Positions 6,505 through 63,458 of a stretch of 64,000 nt of DNA are shown here, piece after piece. The notes beneath the pieces are model-generated. The model ran no database searches. It was not told the origin of the DNA and saw only the letters and a program-made list of their open reading frames with translations. The DNA is from an uncultured bacterium (lineage in GTDB: Bacteria; Bacillota_I; Bacilli_A; RFN20; CAG-826). Position 1 is the first letter of the stretch, and each line of letters begins with the position of its first letter. A program made the position numbers and the translations under genes. The stretch lies in NCBI GenBank assembly GCA_949299165.1, contig CASFZJ010000005.1, positions 12,974-76,973 on the forward strand. The letters are read 5' to 3'.

Positions 6505-6570
6505 ATTTAAAATTTTACTACAATAATTTTTTCATTAAATATTAAGTTTACATTTCTCGAGAAAATCATC

Positions 6571-6711
6571 GTTTTTCTATAGGATTTTCCATTTTTTGTA
6601 GAACTTTTAACAAAAACATATACTTTTTTTAATTTTTTCTCAGAATTTTCACTTTTCTCTATGGTTTTTTAAAAATATCTAGACTTTTCTATAATTTTTT
6701 CTAGAAAAATT
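6571..6711. repeat. array of ~20-bp A-run/core/T-run modules (intergenic repeat family)
   Basis: Modules: caaaaacatatacttttttt, aattttttctcagaattttc, acttttctctatggtttttt, aaaaatatctagacttttc. Perfect palindrome TTTTTCTAGAAAAA at 6696..6709. Confidence 0.55.
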
Positions 6712-6740
6712 AAATAGAAAAGAGCCGGAAACCCGGCCCT
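6712..6740 (-). terminator. rho-independent terminator after Fe-ADH gene
   Basis: Minus strand: GCCGG-GTTT-CCGGC hairpin followed by TCTTTTCTATTT. Confidence 0.6.
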
Positions 6741-6769
6741 TAAATTATCAACAAACTATTTGTAAATTA

Positions 6770-7954: not shown

Positions 7955-8000
7955 AATATCCTCCTATAAATTACCAATAATTTAACCTTTCGGCTCTATT

Positions 8001-8009
8001 ATTATATCA
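8001..8009 (-). promoter_or_regulatory. candidate extended -10 promoter (TGATATAAT) for the ADH gene
   Basis: The reverse complement of 8001..8009 reads TGATATAAT, about 45 nt upstream of the ATG. Confidence 0.35.
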
Positions 8010-8160
8010 AAGTAAATAAAGTATGTTAACGCAGTTTAAAAAGTAATAAAAGCTGGAATTCTGGTAAAAATTACTATAATTTATATTAAAAATAAAAAAT
8101 TAACAAAGAAATTTATGTTGATTTATATAAAACGATCTTGAATGTAAAAATCACTTACTA

Positions 8161-11299: not shown

Positions 11300-11385
11300 T
11301 AGATTTTTAAAACCGATAATAAAACGAAACTTATATAAATTAAATAAGTAATTTCTTTAAAATTTTATAATAAATATATAAATTT

Positions 11386-12366: not shown

Positions 12367-12444
12367 ATAAAAAGTACCACTTTTTAACTATTTTCCCTGA
12401 ATATTTTCAAAATTCTCTGGAAATATTACAAAAAACCTAGTTTT
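12367..12444. repeat. intergenic A-run/core/T-run module array
   Basis: Modules: ataaaaagtaccacttttta, ctattttccctgaatatttt, caaaattctctggaaatatt, acaaaaaacctagtttt. Confidence 0.55.
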
Positions 12445-13433: not shown

Positions 13434-13546
13434 TTTTGCAGGATTTTTTTCAAAAAATATATACTTTTTTTAAAAAATATAGGAAATATTAAAAATCTTC
13501 AGGAAAAATTGAAAAAACTGTATATTTTTTAAATTTCTTGCACTTT
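13434..13546. repeat. five to six tandem ~20-bp A-run/core/T-run modules in a convergent intergenic gap
   Basis: Modules: tttttgcaggattttttt, caaaaaatatatacttttttt, aaaaaatataggaaatatt, aaaaatcttcaggaaaaatt, gaaaaaactgtatatttttt, aaatttcttgcacttttt. Confidence 0.6.
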
Positions 13547-23883: not shown

Positions 23884-24007
23884 ATTATTAGCCTCCCCTT
23901 TAAAAATCTCTACTAAAATTATACGAGAGATTAAGGCACTAATAAACAAAATAATAAGCAAAAACACACTATTTTAAAGAAAAATTAATTTTCAAATTTG
24001 AACTAAT

Positions 24008-24065
24008 AAATTCCTAGAAAAAATCAAAAAAGTAGCACTTTTTACAAAATTCCCTATATTTTTTT
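24008..24065. repeat. intergenic A-run/core/T-run module array
   Basis: Modules: aaattcctagaaaaaat, caaaaaagtagcacttttta, caaaattccctatattttttt. Confidence 0.55.
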
Positions 24066-24100
24066 ATCTTTATTTTTTATGTTTTTTAAAAAACAAAGAT

Positions 24101-24129
24101 AAAAAAAACGGCCATATTTCAGACCGTTT
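24101..24129 (-). terminator. probable terminator after eno
   Basis: Minus strand: AAACGG..CCGTTT hairpin followed by T8. The stem is short and the loop is about 12 nt. Confidence 0.45.
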
Positions 24130-26633: not shown

Positions 26634-26650
26634 ATTTGACCCTCTTCTTT

Positions 26651-26772
26651 CCGAAAATTCCTTACTTTTTTATAAAAAATCCCGCAAATTTTAAATATTT
26701 TCCAGACTTTTTGCAAAAAGTACTACTTTTTTAAAAATTTCCTATATTTCTTATAAAATTATCGCATTTTTT
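26651..26772. repeat. six tandem ~20-bp A-run/core/T-run modules
   Basis: Modules: ccgaaaattccttactttttt, ataaaaaatcccgcaaatttt, aaatattttccagacttttt, gcaaaaagtactactttttt, aaaaatttcctatatttc, ttataaaattatcgcatttttt. Confidence 0.6.
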
Positions 26773-26797
26773 AAAATTCTTAAAAAGTCAATTTTTA

Positions 26798-39971: not shown

Positions 39972-39999
39972 CAAAAACCCTGCAAAACTCCACTTTTTT
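39972..39999. repeat. copy of the AAAAACCCTGCAAA word abutting the comFC stop codon
   Basis: caaaaaccctgcaaaactccactttttt. Confidence 0.5.
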
Positions 40000-40729
40000 A
40001 GATAATTTCTAATTCTCTACCATTAGAATTTCTTGCTAATTCTGTTTTTTCTTCTTCACTAAACACTCTTTTTGCAATTACTAAAATTTTAATTTTTTTA
40101 GGATTTAATTCCTTTAGTAACTTAAGACAAGATTTTAATGTTGAGCCCGTTGTACAAATATCGTCAACTAATAAAAGATTTTTTCCTTCTAGATTAGGAA
40201 GGTCTTCTTTAAACTTGATGTATTTATAAATTTCTTTTCGAGCAAAATAAGATTGATCGGATTGTTTAATTGGTTCTGTTTTCAAAAAAATGTCGTGTAT
40301 TGTTAAGCCCAAGCACTGAAACATGAAAATTACATGATTTCCCATCTTTTCAACGTTGTGCGATGGAGCAACAACAATTTCGTAGTTGTGATAAAGAAAT
40401 CTTAATTCATTCACAAAAGGACCGACAAAAATATTATTTAATTCAAAATCTCCACAACCTTTATATTGATATATTCTCTCTTTGGTGACGCCATCATATT
40501 CATAAAGTGATAAAGCTTCTATATCGTCAATTTGAAATTCAATAAATTCTGGATGCATTTCGTTTAAACACGAATAACAGATTGCGCCTTCATTTAAAAT
40601 TGAGTGATATGAGCCGTCTTTAATTTCTTTAAAACAAACTTTACAAACTTTTGTTGGCGTCTTGAATTGTGGCTCTTGCTTCAACCATTTCTTCAGTTTT
40701 TCTTTGGCCGATAAAAATAACTTCTCCAT
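39998..40729 (-). CDS. comFC: ComF-family phosphoribosyltransferase-like competence protein
   Basis: N-terminal CKVC..CYSC Cys pairs and the PRTase motif LLLVDDICTTGST. Start at 40729 (GGAG RBS) overlaps comFA by 89 nt. Confidence 0.8.
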   Translation of the reverse strand: MEKLFLSAKEKLKKWLKQEPQFKTPTKVCKVCFKEIKDGSYHSILNEGAICYSCLNEMHPEFIEFQIDDIEALSLYEYDGVTKERIYQYKGCGDFELNNIFVGPFVNELRFLYHNYEIVVAPSHNVEKMGNHVIFMFQCLGLTIHDIFLKTEPIKQSDQSYFARKEIYKYIKFKEDLPNLEGKNLLLVDDICTTGSTLKSCLKLLKELNPKKIKILVIAKRVFSEEEKTELARNSNGRELEII

Positions 40730-41783
40730 CTGTAGCTCCGATTTTTCTTCCTACTCTTCCTGCAATTTGAATCAAGGCTTCTTTTGTGTAAATAAAAGAA
40801 GAAGAATTAAACACAATAACTTGTAAATTCTTAAGAGTTATACCTCTTTCTAACACTGACGTGGTAACTAAATATCTATATTCATTATCCCTAAATTTTT
40901 GTATAGATTGTGCCCTATCTTTTCTTTTAGAATGCACTAAATACCCTTGTTTTGCGAAAATTTTTAGCAAAATGTAGAGATTTTCACACTCTTCAATAGT
41001 TGGAACAAACACAAGCAAAGGAAAATCATTTTCATTTAATATTTTCCTAACTTTATAAATTAAGTAGAGATAACAAATTATTTTTGGTGCAACAAACAAA
41101 CTTGGTTCTGGTATCTTTTTGCCATGATATCTTTTAAAGAGCGTAACTACTTTATTGTTTCCTTTTTTATACTCTCCTAACAACTCATCCGAAGGAGTAG
41201 CTGACATTATAATGTAATTTCCTTTAACACTTCTTTTAAAGAAAGCGTTTAATACAAAATTATCTTTAAAAGGGAACGCGTCAATTTCATCTAAAATTAA
41301 TAAATCAAAATAATCTTTATAACGATAAAGTTGATGTGTTGTTAAACAAATTATGTCGCCATTTAAATCGCTCGTATGGCCTCCATAAAGCGAAATCACT
41401 TTATAACCTTTAAAGGCACTTTTTAATCTTTCGGATAGCTCAATTACGACATCTCGTCTTGGAATTCCAAATCCAACACGCCCGCCATTTTTTAAAACAA
41501 ATTCAATTGTTTGATAAACGAGCTCGGTTTTTCCTGCACCGCATACAGCATAAATTAATGTATTTTCTTTGTTGCGGTAATTTTTAAAAACTTCGTCGCT
41601 TACTCTTTTTTGGTCTTCACTTAATTCGTAATTAATTTCAAGATGTCCAAAAGAATTTAAAAAGATTTCGTTTTTCGCTTCTTCACCAATAAAAGATATG
41701 CATCGCCTACAATACGTTTCGCCTTTATAATTAACACCAAAATATTTTGGGTCCTCGTTACCACATAAAGGACACTTCGTAAT
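40641..41783 (-). CDS. comFA: ComFA-like DEAD/DEAH-box helicase, apparent ATT start
   Basis: The frame is open for 128 codons upstream of the track GVG-type start (GTG at 41399). That stretch encodes the 4-Cys finger (KCPLCG..YCRRC) and Walker A (CGAGKTE), with no in-frame ATG/GTG/TTG. AAAGGAGG lies 8 nt upstream of ATT at 41783. DEID box and GRVGR motif lie downstream. Confidence 0.75.
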   Translation of the reverse strand: MTKCPLCGNEDPKYFGVNYKGETYCRRCISFIGEEAKNEIFLNSFGHLEINYELSEDQKRVSDEVFKNYRNKENTLIYAVCGAGKTELVYQTIEFVLKNGGRVGFGIPRRDVVIELSERLKSAFKGYKVISLYGGHTSDLNGDIICLTTHQLYRYKDYFDLLILDEIDAFPFKDNFVLNAFFKRSVKGNYIIMSATPSDELLGEYKKGNNKVVTLFKRYHGKKIPEPSLFVAPKIICYLYLIYKVRKILNENDFPLLVFVPTIEECENLYILLKIFAKQGYLVHSKRKDRAQSIQKFRDNEYRYLVTTSVLERGITLKNLQVIVFNSSSFIYTKEALIQIAGRVGRKIGATDGEVIFIGQRKTEEMVEARATIQDANKSL

Positions 41784-41791
41784 TTTAAAAA

Positions 41792-41817
41792 CCTCCTTTC
41801 ACTTAATACGAAGGAGG
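41792..41817 (-). promoter_or_regulatory. SD-sequestering hairpin in the comFA leader
   Basis: mRNA sense: CCUCCUU-cguauuaaguga-AAGGAGG. The 3' arm is the comFA SD. Two flanking G-U pairs can extend the stem. Confidence 0.5.
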
Positions 41818-41919
41818 CCAATTCGAAAAATGTTAAAAATTTTTTAAACTTTTTTTGAAAAATTTTTTTACAAATCTAATTTTTACGATAATTATCGCAT
41901 TTTTTCATTTAAAAATTTT

Positions 41920-44887: not shown

Positions 44888-44986
44888 TTTCATTTCCTCC
44901 TCAATTCAAAAAATTATACAAAAAAAGTGTTAATAATTAAATAACTAGTTAAAAAGCTAAAAAGTAAAAATTTCTTGAAAAAAATT

Positions 44987-45055
44987 AAAAAATCCCGGGA
45001 ATTTTTAAAAAAATTATTTCTTTTTTCTATTCCAACAAAAACCGTGAAAACTTTT
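44987..45055. repeat. intergenic A-run/core/T-run modules in the prfA/dnaX divergent region
   Basis: Modules: aaaaaatcccgggaattttt, aaaaaaattatttcttttttc, caaaaaccgtgaaaactttt. Confidence 0.45.
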
Positions 45056-45148: not shown

Positions 45149-46840
45149 ATGTCTTATTTAGCACTTTATCGAAAATATAGAAGCAAAAATTTTGACGAAC
45201 TTGTTGGTCAAGAGGCAATAAAAAGAACTTTGGAGAACTCTTTAAAAATCCAAAAAATTTCACACGCTTATCTTTTTAGCGGACCAAGGGGTACTGGCAA
45301 AACTAGCGTTGCACGACTTTTTGCAAAAGCTTTAAATTGCGAAAAAGGTATAGGACATATTTGCAACGACTGTCCAAGTTGTAACGCAATTAATGAAGGC
45401 TCTCATCCTGATGTTATTGAAATTGATGCTGCAAGTAATAGCGGCGTTGATGAAGTTAGAGAACTAATTGAAAAAGTCAAATACGCCCCAATTCAAAGTA
45501 GATATAAAATCTATATTATTGATGAAGTTCATATGATGACAAATAGTGCTTTTAACGCACTTTTAAAAACACTTGAAGAACCACCAAGTTATGTAGTTTT
45601 TATTCTTTGCACTACCGAACCTTATAAACTTTTGCCAACAATTTTAAGTAGATGTCAAAGATATGAATTTAAGAAAATCACAGATTCAGAATTAAAAAAG
45701 CTAATTGTTCGTGTTTTAAGTGAAGAAAATATCACCGCAACAAATGATGCAATCAATTTAATTGTTGAATTAGCAAATGGCGGAGCAAGAGACTCTTTAT
45801 CAATTCTTGATCAAGTTATCTCGTATGCTGGTTCAAATATCGAAGAAAGTGATGTTATTAAAATGTTTGGACTTGTTTCAAGCCAAGATAAAATTCGTTT
45901 ATTAGAAGATATAAAAGAAAAAAATACTTTAAAAGTTTTGAAATCATTTGATGAAATGATCCAAAAAAACACTGATTTATCTAGATTAGTTAATGAATTA
46001 TTAAATCTTTTAAAAGATTCCTTGGTTTATTTAAAAACTCGAGATAAAAACTTAATCACATCTTCAAAAGAAGACGACGCAAAAGAAATCATGCTCAAGT
46101 TCGAAGAAAGCGAATTAATGAATTACATCGAACAACTTTTAAAATGTCAAAACGAATTTAAAACAACTTCCGATCCAAATTTCTTATTTGAAATTTATTT
46201 GTTGAAATTACTTGGTTTAGAAAGCACAACTTCCACTCAGGTTGATGCAACTAAAGAAGTCGTTAAGGAAGTAAGAGCACAAGAAAACGTAATGCAAAAA
46301 CCTGTCGAAATTTCAGAAAAGCCTGCAAATCTCAACTCTTTTGTTGAAAAACCTATCGAAATTAAAAAAGAAGAACCACAAGTTGATATTAAACTTAAAC
46401 CTTCTACTACTGAATTTGCACCTCTTTCTATTGATGGAGATATTAGACAAATCACAATAGATGAACTCATCAAGTTAACGATAATTTCTAACAAAGACGA
46501 AAGAAAAGTACTTACAAACAGATGGTTGGCACTAGAGCAATTAATTAATGATCCTCACGAAGGGCCTTACGCTTCTTTACTACTAGATTCCAAACCATAT
46601 ATTGTTACAAATTCTAACTTAATTCTTATTTGCGACTATAAAAACACCGCGAAAAAGATAAACATCATCTCTAACCAAGAAGGTTTAAACAAACTTGTTA
46701 AAAAACTACTTGGTCGAAAAGTTTGTTTATATGCTCTAAATAGAGATGAATCAACCGAATTAATTAAAAAATATCGTAATCTTCAAGAGTTAAATCACTT
46801 GCCAAAGAAAAGCGATATAGAAGATACAAAATTATTTTAA
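45149..46840 (+). CDS. dnaX: DNA polymerase III subunit gamma/tau
   Basis: GPRGTGKTS Walker A, Zn module CNDCPSCNAI, DEVHM, SRCQ. Confidence 0.95.
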   Translation: MSYLALYRKYRSKNFDELVGQEAIKRTLENSLKIQKISHAYLFSGPRGTGKTSVARLFAKALNCEKGIGHICNDCPSCNAINEGSHPDVIEIDAASNSGVDEVRELIEKVKYAPIQSRYKIYIIDEVHMMTNSAFNALLKTLEEPPSYVVFILCTTEPYKLLPTILSRCQRYEFKKITDSELKKLIVRVLSEENITATNDAINLIVELANGGARDSLSILDQVISYAGSNIEESDVIKMFGLVSSQDKIRLLEDIKEKNTLKVLKSFDEMIQKNTDLSRLVNELLNLLKDSLVYLKTRDKNLITSSKEDDAKEIMLKFEESELMNYIEQLLKCQNEFKTTSDPNFLFEIYLLKLLGLESTTSTQVDATKEVVKEVRAQENVMQKPVEISEKPANLNSFVEKPIEIKKEEPQVDIKLKPSTTEFAPLSIDGDIRQITIDELIKLTIISNKDERKVLTNRWLALEQLINDPHEGPYASLLLDSKPYIVTNSNLILICDYKNTAKKINIISNQEGLNKLVKKLLGRKVCLYALNRDESTELIKKYRNLQELNHLPKKSDIEDTKLF

Positions 46841-46859: not shown

Positions 46860-47165
46860 ATGAACATGCAACAAATGGTCCAAGCAATGCAAAAATTGCA
46901 AAGACAATATGAAAAAGAACATAAACTTTTAGAAGAAAAGGAATTCACTAACACTGCTAATGGTGCTGTCACTGTTACCATGAAAGGCAACCTCGACATA
47001 GTTAGTATCGAAATTCTTGATGATGATTTATTAAAAGAAAAAGAAGATTTAGTCGAAATGATTAAACTCGCCTATAACGGATGTAAAGAACAAATTAATG
47101 ATGCTGAAGAAGCATTAGCTGATAAATTCCAACAAGCTAATCGTAAAGGAGGCTTTCCTTTTTAA
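46860..47165 (+). CDS. ybaB: YbaB/EbfC nucleoid-associated protein
   Basis: 101 aa in the conserved dnaX-ybaB-recR position. MQ..MQKLQ N-terminus. Confidence 0.9.
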   Translation: MNMQQMVQAMQKLQRQYEKEHKLLEEKEFTNTANGAVTVTMKGNLDIVSIEILDDDLLKEKEDLVEMIKLAYNGCKEQINDAEEALADKFQQANRKGGFPF

Positions 47166-50218: not shown

Positions 50219-51026
50219 TACTCTATATTTAGTTCCTTCACCTATTGGCAATTTGAGTGAGGTTTCGCCTCGAATTAAAGAAATTTTAAATTCTGTTTCT
50301 TTTGTCGCATGCGAAGATACAAGAAATACTCAAAAATTACTGGCACTTTTAAATATTTCTAAGCCATGTATTTCTTGCCACGAACATAACGAAATGTCTG
50401 AAAGCCAAATTATTATAAAAAGAATTTTAAATGGTGAAGATTGTGCATATTTAAGCGATGCTGGTTTCCCTTGTATTAGCGATCCAGGATTTTTGTTAAC
50501 GAAAGAATGTATAAAAAACGATATAAAAATAGTTCCAATAAGCGGACCAAACGCGGCACTTTTAGCTCTTGTTGGGAGTGGATTAGACACCACTCATTTT
50601 ATGTTCTATGGTTTTCTCGACTCAAAAATTTCAAAAAAAGAGTCGGAAATTGCTGGGTTTTTGAATTATAAATACACAATTATACTTTATGAAGCCCCTC
50701 ATAGAATTAACGAAACTTTATCATCTTTATATAAAATTTTAGGCAACCGAAAAATCGTTATCGCTAGAGAATTAACAAAAATGTATGAAGAATTTATTCG
50801 CTCAGATTTAAAAACTTTATGTGAAGAAAAACGCGAATATAAAGGTGAGTTAGTTCTTGTTTTAGAAGGAAAAAAAGAAGAAACTAAAGAAATAGATGAA
50901 GGAATTCTTGAAAAAGCTAAAGCACTTGAAAAAATGGGTTGTTCCAAAAAAGAAATTTCTTCTATTATTTCTTCGCTTTTTAACATCAACAAAAATAAAA
51001 TATATAAAGAATTAATAAAAGATTAG
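50211..51026 (+). CDS. rsmI: 16S rRNA (cytidine1402-2'-O)-methyltransferase
   Basis: MANTLYLVPSPIGNL N-terminus and CEDTR motif. ATG at 50211 preferred over the track start at 50160. Confidence 0.9.
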   Translation: MANTLYLVPSPIGNLSEVSPRIKEILNSVSFVACEDTRNTQKLLALLNISKPCISCHEHNEMSESQIIIKRILNGEDCAYLSDAGFPCISDPGFLLTKECIKNDIKIVPISGPNAALLALVGSGLDTTHFMFYGFLDSKISKKESEIAGFLNYKYTIILYEAPHRINETLSSLYKILGNRKIVIARELTKMYEEFIRSDLKTLCEEKREYKGELVLVLEGKKEETKEIDEGILEKAKALEKMGCSKKEISSIISSLFNINKNKIYKELIKD

Positions 51027-54000
51027 TTTAAATCTTCGATTTCACGATTAAATCCTTTGATGATATCTTCATCAATTTTTAATACTTCTCGATCAAAAGT
51101 ATATAGTCCATTATATTCTTTTTCGCAATCATTTAGTTGAGTATATATGATTCCAAAAAGTTCATTATTTTTAGCTAAATTTATAGCATTTTTGTAAAAA
51201 TTCCCATATTTTTTTGTTAAATCTTCTTTTGAAAAAGCAGGAGATTGAGTAAATTGACCTTTGAATAATGCGTGGTCTTGAAGTTTTAAATTAATTCCAC
51301 CGCATTCGCTTAAAATGTAAGGTTTATTTTCTTTTTTGTCTTTTCTTTTTGATTTTGATAACAAATAAGCATGAATTGAATATAAATCTCTTTTTTTATT
51401 TAAATACCATCCGCTTGTAGTGTCATAAATTTTGAATTTATCATAACTTTTAGCGAGTTCATAAATTTTATCAGGTTCAAATTCGCCCCAACCTTCGTTA
51501 AAAAGTGTGTAGCAAATGACTGAAGGATGGTTGTATAAATTTGAAATTATTTCTTTTAATTCATATAAATACATTTTTTTACTTTTTTCATCTTTCCTGC
51601 CGTTTCCTTTTTCGCTCATAAATTTAGAGTTATTTAAAAAAGGAAAAACGCGAGGTAAAACTACCGAAAAGAAATTATATTTATATCCACCATTTGGAAT
51701 GTCTTGAATAACGAGCATTCCAAGTTTATCACATAAATAATAAAAATAATCCATTTCTACTTTGACATGCATTCTGATTGTGTTAAATCCAAGATTTTTA
51801 ACATTTATAATATCGTTTTCATAATCTTTATAAGATGATGGAGTTAATGAATTTGGATAATAGTATCCTTGGTCTAAAACGCCATTCAAAATTACCTTTT
51901 TATTATTCAAAAACACTGCAGAAACGCCATCTTTTTCTTTAACTTCGATTTTTCTAAAGCCAAAATAACTTTCTACTGCATCTTCTAAATATGTAATTTT
52001 AACATCATATAAATAAGGATTTTTGTATGTCCAAGAAATAGGTTTTTCTAAAACTATAAAATCCTCTTTATTGGTTTTAATTAGATATTCTTTGCCTTCA
52101 ATAATGACTTTTGCTTCTCTAATTTTTCGACTTTTAGTTCTAATAAAAATTCCGACTTTTTTCTCATCATAATATACATTAAATTTTACATATTTAATGT
52201 AATCTAAAGGCACTTCTTCTAACCAAACATTTTTGTAAATTCCACTACTTGAAGAATAATAACAAGTTTGTGGATTTAAGGTTTGTTTGCCTCTTGAAAA
52301 ATATGATGAATCAGTAAAATCTTTTACTTTGACAACAACATTATTTTCTTCTTTTATAAAAGATGTGATATCAACGCTTGCTTTAGTATAACCAGATTCA
52401 TGATAAGTTACAAAATTACCATTTAACAAAAGATCAAAAACTTGGTCAGTTCCGTCAAGATGTAAAATATATCTTTTGTCTTTTGAAAAATTTTCAATTT
52501 TTAGTTTTCTTTCATAAATTAATATATTTTGAGGAGAAATAAGTTTGTTTACTCCGGAAAATGGCGCTTCAACTGAATAAGGCACAAGAACTTTTCCATC
52601 GTAAATTGTTTCGCTTTCTTCAAGAATTTTTAGATTCCACTCTCCGTTTAAGTTAATGAAAGACTTTCTTTTAAGATTTGGGCGAGGATATTCTTCAAAT
52701 GGAACATCGTTTTCTTTTCTTGTAATCTTTTCTTTATTTTGTTCTAAATTTGCAATTAAATGTCCGTTATTAATATCGACTTTTTTTGTATTTTTAAATA
52801 CAAAATATAGTGGAATTAACGTTAATAAAAGGATAATCAATGCGACTAAATAGCCATAATTTGAAGGTAATGGATTATTAACGCCAAATTGATCTTGATA
52901 AATTTCGCCATATGCATTATTTAATGCGCTTCCAATAAAAGGACCAATGCACATTGGTAAAGCAACAACGAAGATCATTCTTATTCCCATGAATATTCCT
53001 TCTTTTCCTTTAGGAATATAGGTTCTAAGTAAGGAATTTAGAATTGCAGGAAAACTTACATAACCTAAAATCATGATGAGTCCACTTATTGCAGTATAAA
53101 GTATTCTTCCAATTTCGTTTTCAATAAATGGACAGAAAAACATCATAAATAAGCCAAGCGCAGTAATAGATAAAGTAGGCAAAAGCATTTTTGTTTTACC
53201 TTTTTTATCTGCTCTAAAACCAATGAAAACGCTCAAAACTGAGCCGACTAGTAAAGCAATTGCCATAACTATTGCAAAAGGAGTTAAAAACGAATCACCT
53301 GTATTTGAGATATTGCAAGTTCTCTCAACATAAATCATTAAGTAAGGAAAATAAACTTGAACTGAGACATTAAAGATAAAATAAGTTATTAAAACTATAT
53401 ATAAAAGTTTGTTTTCTTTAATAACTTTTGGTTTAAAACCTTCAATTAAAAGCGAAAAATATGGCTCTTTTTTCTTTTCTTCATTCTTTTCTTTTGGTAG
53501 TAAAAATATAGAAACAATTCCAACTACAAGGACGATTGCACCTACTATATAAAAGAATAAGTCCCATCTATTTCCGCTTGCATCAGTTGTTAATCCATTA
53601 AGCCCAACAAAAATAATTAGCATTGCTGCAAGAGGGAGAACACCTAAAACTCCTTCAACCTTAGCCCTATTTGCATCGTCAATATTTTTGGTTACATACG
53701 AATTAAATGCAGCATCATTCCCTGTTGAACCAAAAAACGTCATTATACAATCGATAACAATTACTAAAATTGCCGCAGTTACGGCACTCATTTGAATAGG
53801 CACGAGTTCAACAGCACCGGTAACATTTAGTAAACCAAAAGAAGCTGTTGAAACGCCCCACAAAATATAACCGACTGAAATAAATATTTTTCTTTTTCTT
53901 AATTTATCACTTAAACCACCCATAAAAAGCGTAGTAAGTGTCGCAGTTATAGCACTTAAAGCGGTTGTTACTGCAATAAGTGTGTTGTAATCAAATTTTT

Positions 54001-54154
54001 CAGCTTCAGGCGCAGAAAAATTCAAATAAGCAATATAGGTGTTTAAATACATATTCTCAATTGACCAAGCAAATTGTCCCGCAAGGCCAATTAAGATAAT
54101 AATTAACCACATTTCCCAACCAATTTTATTGGTTGATTTCTTCGCTTGTTCCAT
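51023..54154 (-). CDS. fusion protein: 12-TM MFS-type transporter (N) plus GH2 glycoside hydrolase (C)
   Basis: Residues ~20-465 hold 12 hydrophobic segments and a GGLSDKLRKRK loop. Residues ~494-1054 are GH2-like (EYPRPNLKR..LNGEWN sugar-binding domain, LFNEGWGEF acid/base, ILSECGG nucleophile). Single uninterrupted ORF. ATG at 54154 preferred over TTG at 54187. Confidence 0.8.
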   Translation of the reverse strand: MEQAKKSTNKIGWEMWLIIILIGLAGQFAWSIENMYLNTYIAYLNFSAPEAEKFDYNTLIAVTTALSAITATLTTLFMGGLSDKLRKRKIFISVGYILWGVSTASFGLLNVTGAVELVPIQMSAVTAAILVIVIDCIMTFFGSTGNDAAFNSYVTKNIDDANRAKVEGVLGVLPLAAMLIIFVGLNGLTTDASGNRWDLFFYIVGAIVLVVGIVSIFLLPKEKNEEKKKEPYFSLLIEGFKPKVIKENKLLYIVLITYFIFNVSVQVYFPYLMIYVERTCNISNTGDSFLTPFAIVMAIALLVGSVLSVFIGFRADKKGKTKMLLPTLSITALGLFMMFFCPFIENEIGRILYTAISGLIMILGYVSFPAILNSLLRTYIPKGKEGIFMGIRMIFVVALPMCIGPFIGSALNNAYGEIYQDQFGVNNPLPSNYGYLVALIILLLTLIPLYFVFKNTKKVDINNGHLIANLEQNKEKITRKENDVPFEEYPRPNLKRKSFINLNGEWNLKILEESETIYDGKVLVPYSVEAPFSGVNKLISPQNILIYERKLKIENFSKDKRYILHLDGTDQVFDLLLNGNFVTYHESGYTKASVDITSFIKEENNVVVKVKDFTDSSYFSRGKQTLNPQTCYYSSSSGIYKNVWLEEVPLDYIKYVKFNVYYDEKKVGIFIRTKSRKIREAKVIIEGKEYLIKTNKEDFIVLEKPISWTYKNPYLYDVKITYLEDAVESYFGFRKIEVKEKDGVSAVFLNNKKVILNGVLDQGYYYPNSLTPSSYKDYENDIINVKNLGFNTIRMHVKVEMDYFYYLCDKLGMLVIQDIPNGGYKYNFFSVVLPRVFPFLNNSKFMSEKGNGRKDEKSKKMYLYELKEIISNLYNHPSVICYTLFNEGWGEFEPDKIYELAKSYDKFKIYDTTSGWYLNKKRDLYSIHAYLLSKSKRKDKKENKPYILSECGGINLKLQDHALFKGQFTQSPAFSKEDLTKKYGNFYKNAINLAKNNELFGIIYTQLNDCEKEYNGLYTFDREVLKIDEDIIKGFNREIEDLN

Positions 54155-54506
54155 TATTTTCGCTTCTTTCGTTATCTTGTTTTTCAAAAGGTGTTAAACC
54201 AATTACATCACTAACTTTTATTGAAAAAGCAATTCCGCTACCCTTGGTTTCGAGTCCTGCTTGTTTATAAATATTCAACATAACTTTGTCTTTAATTTCT
54301 TCATCAACAAGAATAAAAACAATTTCTTTTTCAGGTTGGATAACGATTCCAAAAAATGTCCCAAGTTCTTTGTTTCCTGTTCCATGAGCAACAAAAGTTG
54401 TGCCGCCTCTTGCTCCGCATTCTTTAGCTGCATCCATTACTACTCCAGTATAACCTTGATTAACGATAACAATTATTAATTCATAATTCTTTTGACTTAC
54501 TTCCAT
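54126..54506 (-). CDS. PII-like signal-transduction protein (short T-loop), copy B
   Basis: beta-alpha-beta-beta-alpha-beta pattern aligns by eye to GlnB (ELIIVIV.., GGTTFVAHGTG, KEIVFILV, GSGIAFSIKV). GGAGAG RBS lies inside the upstream gene. Confidence 0.65.
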   Translation of the reverse strand: MEVSQKNYELIIVIVNQGYTGVVMDAAKECGARGGTTFVAHGTGNKELGTFFGIVIQPEKEIVFILVDEEIKDKVMLNIYKQAGLETKGSGIAFSIKVSDVIGLTPFEKQDNERSENNGTSEEINQ

Positions 54507-54935: not shown

Positions 54936-56474
54936 CTACATGTGAATGATTTGTGCATCATTAGTTTCACGAACTTGTTTTTGAACAAGTTTATATCTTA
55001 ATTTAAGTTTAATTGTTGATTGCAAACCTAAAGCTTGAATACAAATAACTGGCATCGCACTAATTAAACCAATGACGCCAAAACCACTATTTTCTCCACC
55101 AATTGAAGCAATACCCATAATAAAAGGTAAAACAAAACAAGAAGACATCGTTCCACTTGCAACTCCACCAGAGTCAAATGCAATAGCAGTATAAATATCA
55201 GGTACAGCAAAAGATAAAGAAATACTTAGCAAATAAAGCGGAACATAATAATAAACAATTGAAAAATTGCCATATAACTCGCGAATTACTTCTAAGACGA
55301 TTGCCCCGGCAACGCCAAGACATAAAGTTATTAACATTTTTGTTTTAGAAATTGTTCCACCACTTACTTCTTCCACTTGTTGATTAAGAATGTGAACACC
55401 AGGTTCAACAAGAACAACAGCACAGCCAATTACAATCGCCAAAATAATAAGTAAATAATTATATTGACCGCCAAAGTCGGGATTACCCAAATTGTTTCCT
55501 AAAGAATAGCCAACCGGAATGAGTCCAAATTTAGCAGCAATTAAGAATATAGATAAGCCAAAATAGGTATAAACAAAGCCTAAATCGATTTTCAAAAGCT
55601 CTTTTTTAGGAAGTTTAATAAATATAAATTGATAAACCTGGAAAAATACAAACAAAGGCAAAATAGCTATCAAAACTTCTAAACATGTATGAGATAACAC
55701 TTCTACAAAAGGTGTATCCAAACTAACACTATTTTTTAGCGATGATAAATCGGTTGTCGAATTTACAATAAGTAAAAGAATCATTGTGGTGATTAATGGA
55801 CCAATTGAGCAAATTCCGGTTACACCGAAAGAGTCGCTTGAAGAATTTTTACCACCTCTAACAGATGCAACGCCAGCCCCAAAAGTTAACAAAAATGGAA
55901 CAGTGACAGGTCCTGTTGTAACCCCACCCGAGTCAAAAGCTATAGAAATAATACTTTCTCCGCTTTTTCCGTCGAGCAAACAACCCAAAGCAAAAACAAT
56001 AAAATAGAAAAATATAAGCCAAATTTTTAAATTTTGTTGAAAAATAATCCTTAATAACCCGACGACAAGAAATATTCCAACCCCTACACCAATACAAATT
56101 TTTAGAATCCATGGATTAATAACATCTTGGAGTAAATCGCTTAAAACGGTTAAATCGGGTTCAGCAATTGTGATCATTAATCCTAAGAAAAATGCAATAA
56201 CAACCATAAAAACAATGGCTTGTTTTTGCGTAATATTTGCACCAATATATTGACCAACTTTACTCATCGAAATATCGCTTCCAAAAGAAAATAAGGCCAT
56301 ACCTAAAATAAGGAAAATTAAGCATATTAAAAATATGATTAACATGTGGGTTGAAATTGTTTCTGAAGGCATTAAATCAGAAAACTGCAATCCAAAAATA
56401 ATCACTACAATTAATGCAATAGGTACAACACTTATTGCAGCTTCAACCAACTTTTGTAAAGCTTGCTTAAACAT
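54936..56474 (-). CDS. internally duplicated polytopic membrane protein (DUF1538-like, two fused repeats)
   Basis: Two homologous halves: IAEPDLTVL ... AFDSGGVTTGPVTVPFLLTFGAGVAS and LVEPGVHIL ... AFDSGGVASGTMSSCFVLPFIMGIAS. About 12-14 TM. The family name is from memory. Confidence 0.6.
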   Translation of the reverse strand: MFKQALQKLVEAAISVVPIALIVVIIFGLQFSDLMPSETISTHMLIIFLICLIFLILGMALFSFGSDISMSKVGQYIGANITQKQAIVFMVVIAFFLGLMITIAEPDLTVLSDLLQDVINPWILKICIGVGVGIFLVVGLLRIIFQQNLKIWLIFFYFIVFALGCLLDGKSGESIISIAFDSGGVTTGPVTVPFLLTFGAGVASVRGGKNSSSDSFGVTGICSIGPLITTMILLLIVNSTTDLSSLKNSVSLDTPFVEVLSHTCLEVLIAILPLFVFFQVYQFIFIKLPKKELLKIDLGFVYTYFGLSIFLIAAKFGLIPVGYSLGNNLGNPDFGGQYNYLLIILAIVIGCAVVLVEPGVHILNQQVEEVSGGTISKTKMLITLCLGVAGAIVLEVIRELYGNFSIVYYYVPLYLLSISLSFAVPDIYTAIAFDSGGVASGTMSSCFVLPFIMGIASIGGENSGFGVIGLISAMPVICIQALGLQSTIKLKLRYKLVQKQVRETNDAQIIHM

Positions 56475-56543
56475 GTTTCTATTATAAAATAAAAATCATT
56501 TTTTTAATATATTTTTTGAAATTATTTTTAGATAATTTTTCTT

Positions 56544-56631
56544 AAAAACCTTGCAAAACCCCAATATTTTCAAAATTTCCTGTGAATTTTGAAAAAAGTG
56601 GTACTTTTTTTAAATTTTCTTGGGAAATTTT
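56544..56631. repeat. intergenic array: CCTTGCAAAACCCC word plus three ~20-bp A-run/core/T-run modules
   Basis: Words: aaaaaccttgcaaaaccccaat, caaaatttcctgtgaatttt, gaaaaaagtggtacttttttt, aaattttcttgggaaatttt. Confidence 0.6.
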
Positions 56632-56637
56632 CAAAAT

Positions 56638-57591
56638 TTACTTAGTTTTTTTCATCAAATCATTAAATTCGTTTGGCATTTTTGCCACTAATTTATAAAC
56701 TTTTCCAGTAATTGGATTTTTAATATCGAGTTCGTAAGCATGTAAACAAAGTCTATTTATTGGATTTTCGGGTTCTCCATATTTATCATCACCTAAGATA
56801 AAGTGACCAAGCCCTCCCAGAGTTACTCTAATTTGATTCTTTCTGCCAGTAAAAATTTCTACATTGAGTAATGAATATTTCTCGTTTTCTTTAACAACCT
56901 TATATTGAGTTATGCATCTTTGAGCTTTTTTGTCTTTTGAATTTGTTATGTACATTAAATTCAAAGCGTTCATTCTTAAATAATTTACAATACGTTTCTC
57001 TTTTTCTTCCATGTTTCCTTCAACTATGGCGTAATATCCTCTTTTAGTAACTAAGTCATTCCAATTGTTTTGCAATTCATCTTTTATTTTTTCGTTTTTA
57101 GCAAATATTAAAACGCCACTAGTTTCCTTATCTATTCTATGCACTACAAAAATACGAGAATGTTTATCTTTTGCTTGCATATAGTCCATCACCATTCTAT
57201 AAGCCGTGGACGATTTTTCTTTATCGCTTGCAACACTTAATAATCCATAAGGTTTATTGATTGCAATGATATCCCTATCCTCATAAATAATTGGTAAATC
57301 TTTTCTAGCTTTTTTCCTAATTGGTTTTTTAGAAATTATTAACGAATCACCTTTAGAGAGCATAAAATTGAATTGACTAACAGGCGCTCCATCAATAGCA
57401 ATTAAATGATGCGACAATAAATTTTTCGCATTATTACGCGAAAATTTAAGTTCTTCAATTAAATATGCTAAAAGTTCACACTCTCTTTTTACAGTGTACT
57501 CTTTTATATCTAACTCTTTTTTTGATTGATAATCTTCAATCTTTTTGCCTTTTGATCTGCTTTTTAAATTTTCTTTATAGTTCTTATTCAT
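56638..57591 (-). CDS. RluA-family pseudouridine synthase with S4 domain
   Basis: HRIDKETSGVLIFAK catalytic motif and an N-terminal S4-like region. Confidence 0.85.
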   Translation of the reverse strand: MNKNYKENLKSRSKGKKIEDYQSKKELDIKEYTVKRECELLAYLIEELKFSRNNAKNLLSHHLIAIDGAPVSQFNFMLSKGDSLIISKKPIRKKARKDLPIIYEDRDIIAINKPYGLLSVASDKEKSSTAYRMVMDYMQAKDKHSRIFVVHRIDKETSGVLIFAKNEKIKDELQNNWNDLVTKRGYYAIVEGNMEEKEKRIVNYLRMNALNLMYITNSKDKKAQRCITQYKVVKENEKYSLLNVEIFTGRKNQIRVTLGGLGHFILGDDKYGEPENPINRLCLHAYELDIKNPITGKVYKLVAKMPNEFNDLMKKTK

Positions 57592-59209
57592 CTTCTTTTT
57601 TTAATTTAATTGCTGCTTTGATAAATCCTAAAAATAATGGATGTGGTTTTAGTGGTCTAGATAAGAATTCTGGATGGAATTGACATGCGATAAAAAATGG
57701 ATGTTTTTTTAACTCAATGATTTCACACAAATTAGTTTGTGGATTAATGCCACTAAATACTAAATTTCCATCGCTAAAAATTTCTTTATATTTATTATTG
57801 AATTCGTATCTATGTCTATGGCGTTCTTTAATTAATTCTTGGCCGTAAAGTTCATAAGTTTTTGTGCCTTTTTCAAGTTTACATTCATACTCGCCAAGTC
57901 TCATTGTGCCACCGAGTTTTATACCTTTATATTGATCAGGGAGATAATCGATAATGTTATTTTTACAATTTTCTTCAAATTCAGTTGAATTTGCATCTTC
58001 AAGCTTTAGAACATCCCTTGCGTATTCAATCAAACTAAGTTGCATACCTAAGCAAAGACCTAAATATGGAATATGGTTTTCTCTAGCAAAGCGAATTGCA
58101 CAAATTTTCCCTTCGGTCCCTCTTTTTCCAAATCCACCAGGGACAATAATCCCTTGAACATTACCTAAATATTCTTCAACGTTTTCTGTAGTTAAATTAT
58201 CGCTATTTATCCATTCAATTTCGATTTTTCTATCAGTTGCGTAGCCCGCATATTTCAAAGATTCAACAACCGAAATATAAGCATCATGTAAAGAGACATA
58301 TTTTCCAACTAACGCAACTTTTACAGTTTTCTTTAATCGTTTAATTTTTTCAATTAATTTAATCCAGTCAGCCATATCAGCATTATCTGCACAATTTAAT
58401 TTCATATGATTCACAATTAAATCGTCTAAATGCTGTTTTTGTAAATTTAAAGCAACTTCATAAATAATTGGAACGTCTTTTACAGAGATGACCGCTTCAT
58501 CGCTTAAATTGCAGAACAACGCAACTTTCCTTTTAGATTCAATATCAATATTAGTTTCACATCTTAAAAGCAATGCATCAGGTTGAATTCCTAAACCAGT
58601 TAATTCTTTGACACTATGTTGAGTTGGCTTAGTCTTGATTTCACCAGTAGTTTTTAAATAAGGAACCAAGGTGTTATGAACAAAAAATGTATTTTCGTAT
58701 CCAAGTTCTCTTCTTAATTGTCTAATCGCTTCCAAAAATGGTTGAGATTCAATGTCGCCAACCGTTCCTCCGATTTCAACAATACAAACATCAGTATCAC
58801 TTTTTGCATTGAAAGCTTCATATAATCTATTTTTAATTTCGTTAGTGATGTGAGGAATAATTTGAATTGTAGCGCCTAAAAAAGCTCCTTTTCTCTCTTT
58901 TTCTAAAACAGTGCTATAAACTTTTCCGCTTGTAACACTACTTTCTTTGGTCAAAGAAGTATTAATTATTCTTTCATAATGGCCCAAATCAAGATCTGTT
59001 TCAGCACCATCTTTTGTGACAAAAACTTCACCGTGTTGATAAGGTGACATCGTACCTGGATCAATATTTAAATATGGGTCTAATTTCATTGAAAAAATAT
59101 TTAGCCCTCTTCTTTTTAATAGTCTTCCAATACATGCGGCACTTATACCTTTACCTAAACTAGAAACAACGCCACCTGTAACAAAGATAAATTTCATTTG
59201 CTTATCCAT
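57584..59209 (-). CDS. pyrG: CTP synthase
   Basis: KFIFVTGGVVSSLGKG and the GATase GLCLGMQ motif. Start set to the ATG at 59209 (GAGGGTGA RBS). The track start at 59221 is TTG. Confidence 0.95.
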   Translation of the reverse strand: MDKQMKFIFVTGGVVSSLGKGISAACIGRLLKRRGLNIFSMKLDPYLNIDPGTMSPYQHGEVFVTKDGAETDLDLGHYERIINTSLTKESSVTSGKVYSTVLEKERKGAFLGATIQIIPHITNEIKNRLYEAFNAKSDTDVCIVEIGGTVGDIESQPFLEAIRQLRRELGYENTFFVHNTLVPYLKTTGEIKTKPTQHSVKELTGLGIQPDALLLRCETNIDIESKRKVALFCNLSDEAVISVKDVPIIYEVALNLQKQHLDDLIVNHMKLNCADNADMADWIKLIEKIKRLKKTVKVALVGKYVSLHDAYISVVESLKYAGYATDRKIEIEWINSDNLTTENVEEYLGNVQGIIVPGGFGKRGTEGKICAIRFARENHIPYLGLCLGMQLSLIEYARDVLKLEDANSTEFEENCKNNIIDYLPDQYKGIKLGGTMRLGEYECKLEKGTKTYELYGQELIKERHRHRYEFNNKYKEIFSDGNLVFSGINPQTNLCEIIELKKHPFFIACQFHPEFLSRPLKPHPLFLGFIKAAIKLKKEDE

Positions 59210-59302
59210 AATCACCCTCAACTAAAAATTAAAATATATAAAAAAGGTCGCCCTTAATATTTTATTGATATTTATTTAATTAATCTACAATAAATGCAAT
59301 AA

Positions 59303-59403
59303 ATAAAAAGTAGTATTTTTAGCAAAATTTCCTAGGAATTTTGTTGAAAAGTACTACTTTTTTAAATATTTCTAGTATTTTTTACAAAAATATATACTTT
59401 TTT
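59303..59403. repeat. five tandem ~20-bp A-run/core/T-run modules
   Basis: Modules: ataaaaagtagtattttt, agcaaaatttcctaggaatttt, gttgaaaagtactactttttt, aaatatttctagtatttttt, acaaaaatatatacttttttt. Confidence 0.6.
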
Positions 59404-59405
59404 AC

Positions 59406-60374
59406 TTATTTACTTAAATAATCCATTGCAAGGCAGGCACAACCAATGATTCCTGCATCGTTTTTAAGTGAAGCGGTTTTAATTTCGACTTTTGGTGTGT
59501 GACTATATCCATAATGTGCTTTTTCACAATATGCTATGATTTTGTCAATTAAATAGTCACCTTGATTAGAAATTCCACCACCAATTAAAATGATTTGAGG
59601 TCTGAAAATATTACAGAAATTTAAAATACCTTCACTTAAATATTTTACATAAGTATCAATAACTTTAATTGCGGTTTCATCACCTTTTTTGGCGCATTCA
59701 AAACTCGTAAGTCCACTGACATTTTCTAAGTTGTGTGAACAATAATCCCACATGATAGAGTTTTTATTATTGATCATTTCTTTCTTTGTTAATTCAAGTA
59801 ACGCGCTTGCGCTAGCATAGGTTTCAAAACAACCTCTTCTGCCACATCCACATTCATGTCCATCAACAACAATTACAGAATGTCCAAGTTCGGTACCTTT
59901 TCCATCGATTCCTTCAAAAAGTTTATTATCAATAACAACTCCTCCACCGATTCCTGTGCCTAAGGTTAATAAGACAGCATCTTTATATCCTTTAGCTGCA
60001 CCAAATCTAACTTCAGCAAGAGCAGCAACATTTGCATCATTTGATAAAAAGACAGGTAATTCTAAATCTTTTAAATAATCCTTTAATGGAACATCTTCAA
60101 CGTGTAAGTTACATGCATATGCAATTTCTCCTTTTGTTGTATTAACAACTCCAGGAATTCCAAAAGCAATAGCTAATGGTTTTAAGTCATGACTCTTAGC
60201 ATAATCAATCATTTCGACCATTAATTCTTTAGTATCTTTAAGTAAAGCTTCAGCTCCGCCACTAACACTATTAGTCTTTTTGCTATTTTTATAAATTATT
60301 TCGCCGTTTTCAGTGACTAATCCAGCCTTAATCGACATACCACCAACGTCAACACCAATATATACATTTTCCAT
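59406..60374 (-). CDS. glk: ROK-family glucokinase
   Basis: GVDVGGMSIKAG, and the ROK zinc motif HECGCGRRGCFE. ATG at 60374, behind a GGAG RBS. Confidence 0.85.
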   Translation of the reverse strand: MENVYIGVDVGGMSIKAGLVTENGEIIYKNSKKTNSVSGGAEALLKDTKELMVEMIDYAKSHDLKPLAIAFGIPGVVNTTKGEIAYACNLHVEDVPLKDYLKDLELPVFLSNDANVAALAEVRFGAAKGYKDAVLLTLGTGIGGGVVIDNKLFEGIDGKGTELGHSVIVVDGHECGCGRRGCFETYASASALLELTKKEMINNKNSIMWDYCSHNLENVSGLTSFECAKKGDETAIKVIDTYVKYLSEGILNFCNIFRPQIILIGGGISNQGDYLIDKIIAYCEKAHYGYSHTPKVEIKTASLKNDAGIIGCACLAMDYLSK

Positions 60375-62878: not shown

Positions 62879-62918
62879 AAAGATGTAAATTTACAAAAAT
62901 AATTTTAAATTAAATTTA

Positions 62919-62940
62919 ATTGGGGTTTTGCGAGGTTTTT
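62919..62940. repeat. reverse-orientation copy of the CCTYGCAAAACCCCAAT word
   Basis: attggggttttgcgaggttttt. Its reverse complement matches 56544..56565 at nearly every position. Confidence 0.55.
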
Positions 62941-62996
62941 AATTAATTTAGTAGTTTTTTAGTACTAAAAATTAACTAAATTTTTACTTTTTTCTA

Positions 62997-63455
62997 CTAA
63001 TTAATTTTCTTTAGCAATCCTACATTTCCGACAATTTCTTCAAATCCATTTTTTAAATAAAAATTGTAAGCGTCAAAAGATTTGACTGTATCAAGCAAAA
63101 TATATGAAATATTTAATTCTTTTATTTTTATAGACAACAATTCCATAAACAAAGAACCGAGACCTCTTTTTTTGATAATCTATATCAATACAAAACTCAT
63201 CGATTCTTAACTGAGTTCCTTAATAAAAATGCATGACTCTTCCTAAAGCTATTCCTACTAGAACATCTTTACTTCCCTCGTTAATGAATAAGCCAAAAGA
63301 AAGAGATTTTTTTGATCTATCAAATCATGAATATATAAATTAAGCTGCTTTTTATCACTCCGATCATCAAACCAAGGCGCTGAAGAAAATGTGCGATAAA
63401 AGACATCTTTTATTTCTTCAAAATTTTCTTTGTTATTTAATATTTTTATTTTCAT
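62997..63455 (-). pseudogene. decayed GNAT acetyltransferase gene
   Basis: Reading needs two frameshifts, both at A7 runs (plus-strand T7 at 63307..63313 and 63167..63173). There is also an in-frame TAA at 63220..63222. The repaired reading gives the GNAT motif A: QKKRGLGSLFMELL. Confidence 0.7.
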
Positions 63456-63458
63456 AAA

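Follow-up and report, generated by a model that had tools for sequence, protein, structure and literature searches.

Introduction

Short palindromes in the spacers of bacterial genomes are known in several forms. Bidirectional intrinsic terminators consist of an A-run, a palindrome and a T-run. The repetitive extragenic palindromic sequences and bacterial interspersed mosaic elements (REP/BIME) of enterobacteria are short imperfect palindromes confined to intergenic DNA, which are lineage-specific and occur in mosaic order and orientation together with other short motifs; some REP copies can serve as terminators or 3' stabilisers. In Neisseria and Haemophilus, many terminator-like hairpins have one short common word for their stem, the DNA uptake sequence (DUS) or the uptake signal sequence (USS). 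Here we describe a family of AT-rich inverted-repeat units in the intergenic spacers of a 64,000-nucleotide stretch of contig CASFZJ010000005.1 (positions 12,974 to 76,973, forward strand; assembly GCA_949299165.1) from an uncultured bacterium, hereafter the window, with particular regard to the gap at 59303-59403 between pyrG and the gene of a ROK-family kinase (the flagged gap), where several units combine into one long hairpin.

The original prediction, made from the letters of the window, held that this family belongs to no described class. That claim did not survive comparison, since A-run, palindrome and T-run make up the layout of a bidirectional intrinsic terminator, and mosaics of palindromes have the look of REP/BIME; the family is a tiny, AT-only version of such intergenic palindromes, whose function past the flagged hairpin we infer. 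Besides the layout, the likeness to intrinsic terminators lies in the flagged hairpin, which stands past a stop codon in the position of the ROK terminator, ends in a U-run and has an energy in the canonical range; the differences are that the stems here are almost wholly A:U and long (~48 nt), that single units are far too weak and equally common in divergent gaps, and that the units share one arm sequence among loci. As in REP/BIME, the units are extragenic and mosaic over the ~90 kb of genome covered by the window and its flanks. However, they are ~20 bp long and ~85% A+T, where REPs have 35-40 bp and are GC-rich; their cores change near-neutrally, and no gene for a REP-associated tyrosine transposase (RAYT; Y1 / IS200-like) is found among the genes of these ~90 kb. 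The DUS/USS terminators offer a further parallel, both in the use of one short common word for many stems and in a second word, here called the E motif, of which copies are also found unpaired and within genes; the density is however much lower here, and for the E motif an inverted partner exists in near relatives alone, in their ROK terminator. To our knowledge, nothing indicates that Firmicutes take up DNA in a sequence-specific manner. Finally, the 15-bp CodY box AATTTTCWGAAAATT resembles the B units described below, which are AT-rich palindromes around TTC..GAA, but the spacing in B units differs and varies; CodY boxes are not enriched (45 with up to three mismatches vs 37.5 +/- 6 in shuffles).

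Results and discussion

A clade-specific vocabulary of intergenic units

Our results revealed a clade-specific mosaic vocabulary of short inverted-repeat units in the inter-operon spacers of one lineage of gut Bacilli. A unit comprises an A-run of 4-7 nucleotides, a core of 7-11 bp that includes one or two G:C pairs, and a T-run of 4-7 nucleotides, and neighbouring units abut, so that the T-run of one meets the A-run of the next. Unit A has perfect arms of 7 nt around a centre of 3 nt, B units have the form AAAATTTC-loop-GAAATTTT with a centre of 2-4 nt, the C unit is a near-palindrome, and D is the word TTCCTATATTT. Such TnAn junctions might suggest curved DNA; this was rejected by reasoning, as junctions ~20 bp apart should largely cancel their bends.

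The letters of the flagged gap agree with those quoted in the original prediction, and its listed words (1, 2, 4 and 5 were checked) lie where it had placed them. The palindrome AAAAGT-N3-ACTTTT is exact at 12370, 24028, 26716, 56594 and 59347, every copy being intergenic, and has one mismatch at 59306; with up to one mismatch there are 8 matches, against 2.5 +/- 1.4 in shuffles. The second word, AAAAATATATACTTTTT, has exact copies at 13453 and 59386 and a one-mismatch copy at 6612, and up to two mismatches give 7 matches where chance gives 0.7. Word 4, the D word, stands at 24050, 26739 and 33023 with an inverted copy at 13475, while word 5, a 16-mer, has exact copies at 26757 and 41890. For palindromes with 6-nt arms containing G or C, the top one has 5 copies, compared with family-wise maxima, from 300 Markov simulations each, of 2 (third order) and 4 (fifth order). 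Moreover, 34 14-mers are common to more than one gap (9.2 +/- 4.4 expected), and AAAAAGTA/TACTTTTT has 15 copies in 3.9 kb of spacer vs 10 in 60 kb of coding DNA. Multi-unit blocks, 60-70 nt in length, are common to different gaps with 77% identity over 62-69 nt; for example, the claimed collinearity of 56571-56632 with 59323-59384 is borne out by 77% identity over 64 aligned columns, where shuffles give 52 +/- 3% and at most 63%. The words show no strand bias, and a weak spacing signal appears at 20, 40 and 60 nt.

The best control is provided by other genomes of equal intergenic GC, the spacers of the host having 23%. From strains and sister species, 12 further loci of the clade were obtained by looking up exact proteins and through the members of the 90% cluster of ROK (95.6-100% identical); their contigs add ~16 kb past both ends of the window. 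Loci and genomes of clade and relatives carry L numbers: by PyrG identity to the host, the species representative L006 stands at 96% and the congeners L002-L005 at 88-90%, with others lower, and a scan of metagenome contigs found no relative above 89%. The words are present at 12 of the 12 clade loci, and they recur beyond the window, in the gap upstream of ssrA (L287 4945-5420). They are restricted to this clade (ROK at least 95.6% identical), and the congeners at 88-90% are without them. Densities are as follows.

AAAAAGTA: window 3.0/kb; rest of clade 2.6/kb; relatives 0.12-0.78/kb
Full A unit: window 1.0/kb; rest of clade 0.58/kb; relatives 0-0.02/kb
AAATTTCC: window 0.8/kb; rest of clade 0.93/kb; relatives 0-0.08/kb
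TATAGGAA: window 0.6/kb; rest of clade 0.35/kb; relatives 0-0.04/kb

Overall, the words are 5-25x denser here than in composition-matched relatives. Together with the shuffles and the Markov simulations, this bears out the view that they are a real and modular family rather than AT-rich background or one simple repeat. The pattern is nevertheless partly background, since the generic A-run..T-run unit is only ~2x denser than in other AT-rich Bacilli (5-8.6/kb vs 1.5-6.5/kb); short inverted repeats of the hairpin type are 2-3.5x commoner in the spacers than in Markov simulations. Some details of the original prediction need revision. The words were said to be shared by at least ten gaps, which holds under a lenient definition, while strictly eight gaps are clear; the order of TTCC-type word, A unit and TTCC-type word, said to extend to 12367, is only partly right there, where the A unit leads with no TTCC word before it; the gap 7955-8160, cited as pattern-free, contains AAAAAGTA at 8038 within a hairpin; and CTAG, cited as a usually avoided tetramer, is no anomaly in this genome (94 observed vs 94.4 expected; 11 vs 5.5 in gaps).

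Restriction to one clade, blocks of 60-70 nt common to several gaps, palindromic structure and the GTAG in some A units would all agree with a miniature mobile element, either a miniature inverted-repeat transposable element (MITE) or a RAYT-driven REP, that entered the ancestor of the clade. This explanation is very improbable. Neither presence/absence differences nor indels of unit or block size exist among the 12 clade loci; terminal repeats with target duplications were not found; the gaps are no longer than those of unit-free relatives; and the ~90 kb contain no transposase or Y1 gene. A MITE was rejected on these grounds. Besides, Tandem Repeats Finder (TRF) and a repeat search show loose similarity only. 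A head-to-tail tandem array was likewise rejected, as TRF detected one weak array at 13472-13517 (period 20, 2.3 copies, 69% matches) and left the other arrays undetected.

A candidate terminator in the ROK-pyrG gap

The flagged gap and its borders have the following features.

57584-59209, minus strand: pyrG, beyond which a pseudouridine synthase gene and then a DUF1538 gene come next
59250..59264, minus strand: pyrG promoter with -10 TAAAAT and conserved GGGC start, downstream of the units and kept from the window to L007
59298..59364, minus strand: composite A-B-A' hairpin with U-rich tail UUUUUAUUUAU, beginning 51 nt past the first base of the ROK stop codon
59303..59321: unit A' (ATAAAAAGTAGTATTTTTA), the one-mismatch AAAAGT-N3-ACTTTT and inverted partner of A, its core the same in every clade lineage
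59323..59343: unit B (CAAAATTTCCTAGGAATTTTG), a near-perfect 20-bp palindrome forming the tip of the composite hairpin
59345..59364: unit A (TGAAAAGTACTACTTTTTTA), invariant across the clade
59365..59404: units B' (AAATATTTCTAGTATTTTTT) and C (ACAAAAATATATACTTTTTT), located past the ROK stop codon and ahead of the hairpin, with lineage-variable cores and ~0 kcal/mol each when alone
59406-60374, minus strand: ROK-family kinase gene

In the direction of the genes, the order is thus ROK stop, C, B', A, B, A', TTTTTATTTATT and the pyrG promoter. Since A and A' are inverted copies of each other, A-B-A' folds as a single long hairpin, which is terminator-like on both strands and on the minus strand is stable and followed by a U-tract. 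Its folding energy is -8.3 kcal/mol without the U-run (tail UUUUUAUUUAU) and -12.7 to -15.5 kcal/mol with flanks, and canonical terminators of the genome, with the U-run excluded likewise, have -6.3 to -11.9 kcal/mol. The arms A and A' are invariant in the clade while the loop and internal loops vary; the centre of B, for instance, reads CCTAGG or CCTTGGG among lineages with the arms retained. A consensus terminator scan called none in the flagged gap.

The relatives place this hairpin in context. From L002 to L007, each lineage has one dominant hairpin with a U-run at this site, ending 44-99 nt past the start of the ROK stop codon, so that the modules of the flagged gap are a positional replacement of the ROK terminator. 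In the relatives at 88-90% identity the stem of that terminator is GCCTGCA/TGCAGGC, and the tail in L002 is nearly identical to that of the host. Its position, its energy and its tail, together with the orthology, make it most likely that the composite hairpin ends the transcription of ROK before the pyrG promoter. That the words might be ordinary terminator elements, an outcome which the original prediction had weighed against itself, therefore holds in this gap, though not for the family overall.

As for pyrG itself, its leader opens TAAAAT-ATTAA-GGGC, and the downstream hairpin is tiny (AAGG-GCGA-CCTT, then T6). An initial GGGC is a hallmark of CTP-sensitive control by reiterative transcription at pyrG of Bacillus subtilis.

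Arrays in other gaps

Outside the flagged gap, the units form the arrays and single copies listed below.

6611..6712: array of some five units that lie downstream of the canonical Fe-ADH terminator (~6725-6745), evolving fastest of the arrays
12367..12428: array A / B / B; the gap is divergent (promoter-promoter)
13451..13531: array C / D (inverted) / B / C (inverted), filling a convergent gap, with C arms pairing as a long hairpin
24006..24066: array TTCC-word / A / TTCCCTATATTT, with the A core inverted in the sister lineage
24066..24105: AT-only hairpin (-12.6 / -15.4 kcal/mol) directly beside the canonical enolase terminator (24106-24129)
26692..26753: array TTCC-word / A / TTCCTATATTT, overlapping a promoter-like TTGCAA-17-TAAAAT on the minus strand (26716..26688)
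44986..45007: one B unit, AAAAAATCCCGGGAATTTTT, between the divergent genes prfA and dnaX
56571..56632: array B-A-B downstream of the rluD-like gene, collinear with 59323-59384, its cores 64% and its runs 76% conserved vs the sister lineage

The last array has hairpins of -7.4 to -10.6 kcal/mol ahead of U-runs, and in L004 and L007 the gap downstream of the rluD-like gene has ordinary terminators; this gap resembles the flagged gap in its behaviour, less clearly.

Several arrays lie near promoters, and the units could accordingly be promoter-upstream elements whose T-run/A-run junctions act as UP-like sites for the C-terminal domain of the RNA polymerase alpha subunit, or as hexamers of the -35/-10 kind. 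The word AAAAAAGTA fits the proximal UP subsite consensus, which is reportedly AAAAAARNR; arrays stand at -40 to -160 of the promoters of pyrG, ssrA and the 26016 gene; the TTGCAA-17-TAAAAT site has a B-type unit as its spacer, and L289 has TTTAAA-17-TAAAAT at the place orthologous to gap 56475-56637; the runs, moreover, are conserved. Some units lie at the UP-element position (-38 to -59), and arrays also reach -160. We consider this explanation nevertheless improbable, since an array occupies the convergent gap, where no promoter is required. Promoter-like sites are at shuffle level (48 vs 49.8 and 79 vs 91), and clusters resembling sigma-70 promoters are not enriched over shuffles; AAAAAGTA keeps no fixed distance or orientation to -35 hexamers, and relatives with the same genes and promoters are without the words.

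Persistent runs and changing cores

Compared with L006, the window is 53-55% identical at 4-fold sites and 67-72% at third codon positions, and the arrays are 72-89% identical. Within the arrays, relative to sister lineages, identity is distributed as follows.

A/T runs: 90.7%
Cores: 71.1%, which is about the third-codon-position level (mostly 67-71%)
Other non-run spacer positions: 83%

In an extreme case, the cores at 6560-6720 are only 51% identical vs 91% for third codon positions in the adjacent gene. In the sister lineage, half of the A units are without one arm. At two loci the core differs between sister lineages as an exact reverse complement: the core at 24026 reads GTGCTAC vs GTAGCAC, and the one upstream of ssrA reads AAAAAGTAATATTTTTT vs AAAAAAATATTACTTTTTT, with a symmetric AAAAAAGTAGTACTTTTTT at the same place in L292. 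In the hairpin at 24066-24105, both arms have changed in compensatory fashion between lineages (ATCTTTG..AAAGAT vs GTTGATA..TATCAAC), which to judge from the sequences would count for selection on the hairpin in AT-only stems.

Polymerase template switching between short inverted repeats leads to homogenised arms and inverted spacers (PMC8604942, PMC8794818), and the exact inversion of the core between fixed runs at two loci, together with the symmetrised variant at one of them, is what such quasi-palindromes would give. Spacer inversion of this kind accounts for most of the shuffled orientation of modules emphasised in the original prediction: with its arms in perfect inverted repeat, unit A owes its orientation to the three central bases, and these flip between sister lineages. 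The claim thereby largely dissolves. Template switching is however a mutational mechanism and no functional class, and it covers the orientation and perfection of the palindromes, not the recurrence of words across loci.

Such observations also suit a neutral explanation, in which the units are functionless spacer DNA, that is, A-run/T-run quasi-palindromes that arise easily at 23% GC, are perfected by template switching and share words by descent or chance copying. A core rate close to that of third codon positions, the fast cores at 6560-6720, the inversions between lineages, the commonness of A-run..T-run units in other AT-rich Bacilli and the negligible folding energy of single units all agree with it. 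However, identical arms at separate loci far exceed the Markov expectation and are missing from composition-matched relatives, the arrays are far better conserved than 4-fold sites, A and A' are invariant in the clade, and one gap (26634-26797) is conserved at 94.5%. Spacer DNA free of any function is on balance a rather improbable explanation.

What the units may do

Altogether, the account that we would put forward, tentatively and at somewhat less than an even chance of being right as a whole, is a family of terminator-like AT-rich palindromes reshaped by template switching, with the flagged A'-B-A hairpin as a terminator. The A-run and T-run would be the arms of a quasi-palindrome, in which the runs persist and the cores are replaced about as fast as third codon positions, and switching of the template at inverted repeats during replication would invert or symmetrise these cores; the pattern is observed, the mechanism presumed. 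A lone unit would be too weak to matter much as RNA, while two like units facing each other across a third one would give a long AU-rich hairpin with A-run/U-run flanks, that is, a bidirectional intrinsic terminator. The flagged A'-B-A (59303-59364) would be such a hairpin, past the ROK stop and before the pyrG promoter, in place of the GC-stemmed ROK terminator of the relatives. The other units would then be spare or decaying members of the family, organised like REP/BIME, of which a few may have been recruited into promoter regions.

A number of observations weigh against this account. The D word is non-palindromic. Folded as single-unit RNAs, A reaches -0.5 to -4.4 kcal/mol (plus-strand RNA), B 0 to -4.2 kcal/mol, and C and D ~0, with the U-run consumed by the stem, whereas the GC-stem terminators of the genome reach -10 to -14 kcal/mol in the same comparison; no single unit makes an adequate hairpin alone. 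By RNAalifold, the array at 56571-56632 has a weak consensus fold (-6.6 kcal/mol) with almost no covariation. Two arrays sit past good canonical terminators. Furthermore, no depletion is seen in divergent gaps, where no transcript ends: AAAAAGTA has 3.9/kb in co-directional vs 3.7/kb in divergent gaps, and A-run..T-run units have 9.0/kb vs 8.1/kb, so termination is not the common denominator of the family. The gap 26634-26797, 94.5% identical to the sister lineage while its flanking genes are 69% identical at third codon positions, is conserved well above neutral, which suggests a sequence-specific role there, e.g. as promoter or operator. Finally, template switching acts locally and leaves unexplained why the same arm AAAAAGT/ACTTTTT stands at five or six separate loci; for the shared arms and the 60-70-nt blocks, past inter-locus copying or sequence-specific selection is needed. 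With the convergent gap filled by an array as well, neither a terminator nor a promoter element suits every site.

A sequence-specific role is offered by another explanation, in which the units bind an abundant, clade-specific dimeric protein, either nucleoid-associated or a global regulator. Such a dimer would read a palindrome of fixed spacing (AAAAGT-N3-ACTTTT, possibly TTYCC..GGRAA) set in A/T runs with a narrow minor groove, and the ~20-bp period of the arrays would bring several dimers onto one helix face. The fixed arms and 3-nt spacing at five or six loci around a free central triplet fit this, as do the equal frequency of the words in divergent, convergent and co-directional gaps without strand bias, the better conservation of A/T runs than cores, and the weak 20/40/60-nt signal. 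A protein of the YbaB/EbfC family is encoded at 46860-47165. The member of this family in Borrelia, EbfC/YbaB, binds the broken palindrome GTnAC (PMC2665219). The recurrent palindrome here is GT-N3-AC and differs from that site (GT-N1-AC), and YbaB is universal, yet relatives are without the words. Besides, half of the A units have lost an arm in the sister lineage, the half-site spacing of 2 to 4 nt in B is ill-suited to a rigid dimer, at least three unrelated core types would demand several proteins, and the ~90 kb contain no candidate for a clade-specific regulator. We thus regard a dimer-binding role as unlikely, while keeping it in mind.

The E motif

Separate from the clade-specific units, a well-conserved word of 28 nt, A5-SCYTGCAAAWCYYMAMYWTTTT, the E motif, is dispersed in spacers and a few genes. 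Its copies are as follows.

Plus strand: 1-27, 3520-3547, 6279-6306, 26676-26703, 39974-40001, 46317-46346 (in dnaX) and 56545..56571, the last one (AAAACCTTGCAAAACCCCAATATTTTC) abutting the array at 56571-56632
Minus strand: 13447, 33073, 43667 (in a methyltransferase gene) and 62939
Relatives: L002 8571, L003 8660, L005 4113 and L007 7745

The E motif is genus-wide rather than clade-only, with 0.5-1/kb of spacer vs ~0.1/kb in distant relatives. It is mostly unpaired, its inverted partner being found only in the ROK terminator of L002, L004, L206 and L213, and it was on this ground rejected as a general hairpin arm. It often stands ~11 nt after a TAAAAT-like hexamer; sigma-54 and sigma-B promoters were rejected as its identity, since by eye their spacings do not fit.

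Host genome and other loci

The window has ~30% GC, uses the bacterial code 11, has strong Shine-Dalgarno sites and carries the majority of its genes on the minus strand. The closest relatives of its PyrG are metagenome-assembled genomes of uncultured gut 'Bacilli/Mollicutes' near Candidatus Onthovivens, and the host, as judged from sequence, is a lineage of uncultured gut Bacilli close to this taxon. The genes in the ~90 kb are housekeeping only. An archaeal reading, with TATA and oligo-T elements, was rejected as the genes are bacterial and have Shine-Dalgarno sequences. Among the covariance models of Rfam 15, only tRNA-Ser passed, and no gap has a match at E <= 1. A phage scan with unit A was swamped by chance matches in AT-rich phages, and one with the E motif gave zero matches, or just chance ones in GC-richer contigs.

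Several other loci were noted in the window. In a single long open reading frame (ORF) at 51023-54187 on the minus strand, an MFS transporter domain (residues 52-416) is joined to domains of glycoside hydrolase family 2 (503-964), and this ORF is called as one gene of ~1043 aa in all clade lineages. At 40641-41919, a Helicase_C ORF is followed by a coding-looking 'gap' of 520 nt and adjoined by a gene with a phosphoribosyltransferase domain (39998-40729), an arrangement resembling a comFA-like gene with a frameshift next to a comFC-like one. The DUF1538 gene (54936-56474, minus strand) has a TATAAT six bases ahead of its ATG and no Shine-Dalgarno sequence (56475-56495), an arrangement conserved in relatives, and this suggests that its mRNA may be leaderless.

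A coding-looking remnant lies at 62879-63458, where sister lineages have an intact acetyltransferase ORF of 152 aa (L295 6935-7393); the adjacent hexapeptide-transferase gene is also split in some strains, and the region is a small zone of gene decay differing among strains. Within it, TTTTTAGTACTAAAAA (62960-62990) is a perfect 16-bp palindrome of reversed layout (T-run, core, A-run), which is bordered by the words AGTAG and CTACT and adjoined by an inverted E motif. Another perfect palindrome, TAGTGATAATAATTATCACTA, at 11300-11330 upstream of a gene for a TrmB-family regulator (~10342-11244), looks like an operator unrelated to the repeat family.

Conclusions

As a whole, the significance of this family is at present modest and of interest to specialists. 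One broader picture, which is speculative and which we think rather doubtful, is that the clade acquired a word-specific partner, either a dimeric DNA-binding or nucleoid protein or an enzyme recognising hairpins, for which arrays phased at ~20 bp would be genome-wide landing sites (AAAAGT-N3-ACTTTT, TTYCC..GGRAA) that insulate transcription units; together with the older 28-nt E motif, they would make up a layered intergenic 'punctuation' in a reduced genome of gut Bacilli. If the words do prove to be protein landing sites, the lineage would be a simple model of such punctuation.

The units provide natural and clean cases in which, at intergenic inverted repeats of bacteria, spacers are inverted and palindromes perfected, and they advise caution, as an apparent shuffling of module orientation may be no more than three-base loops flipping between perfect arms. 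Moreover, they indicate that an uncultured gut lineage of very high AT content can rebuild terminator-like hairpins with sequence that is almost entirely A:T, and such AT-only hairpins would be missed by terminator finders based on GC.

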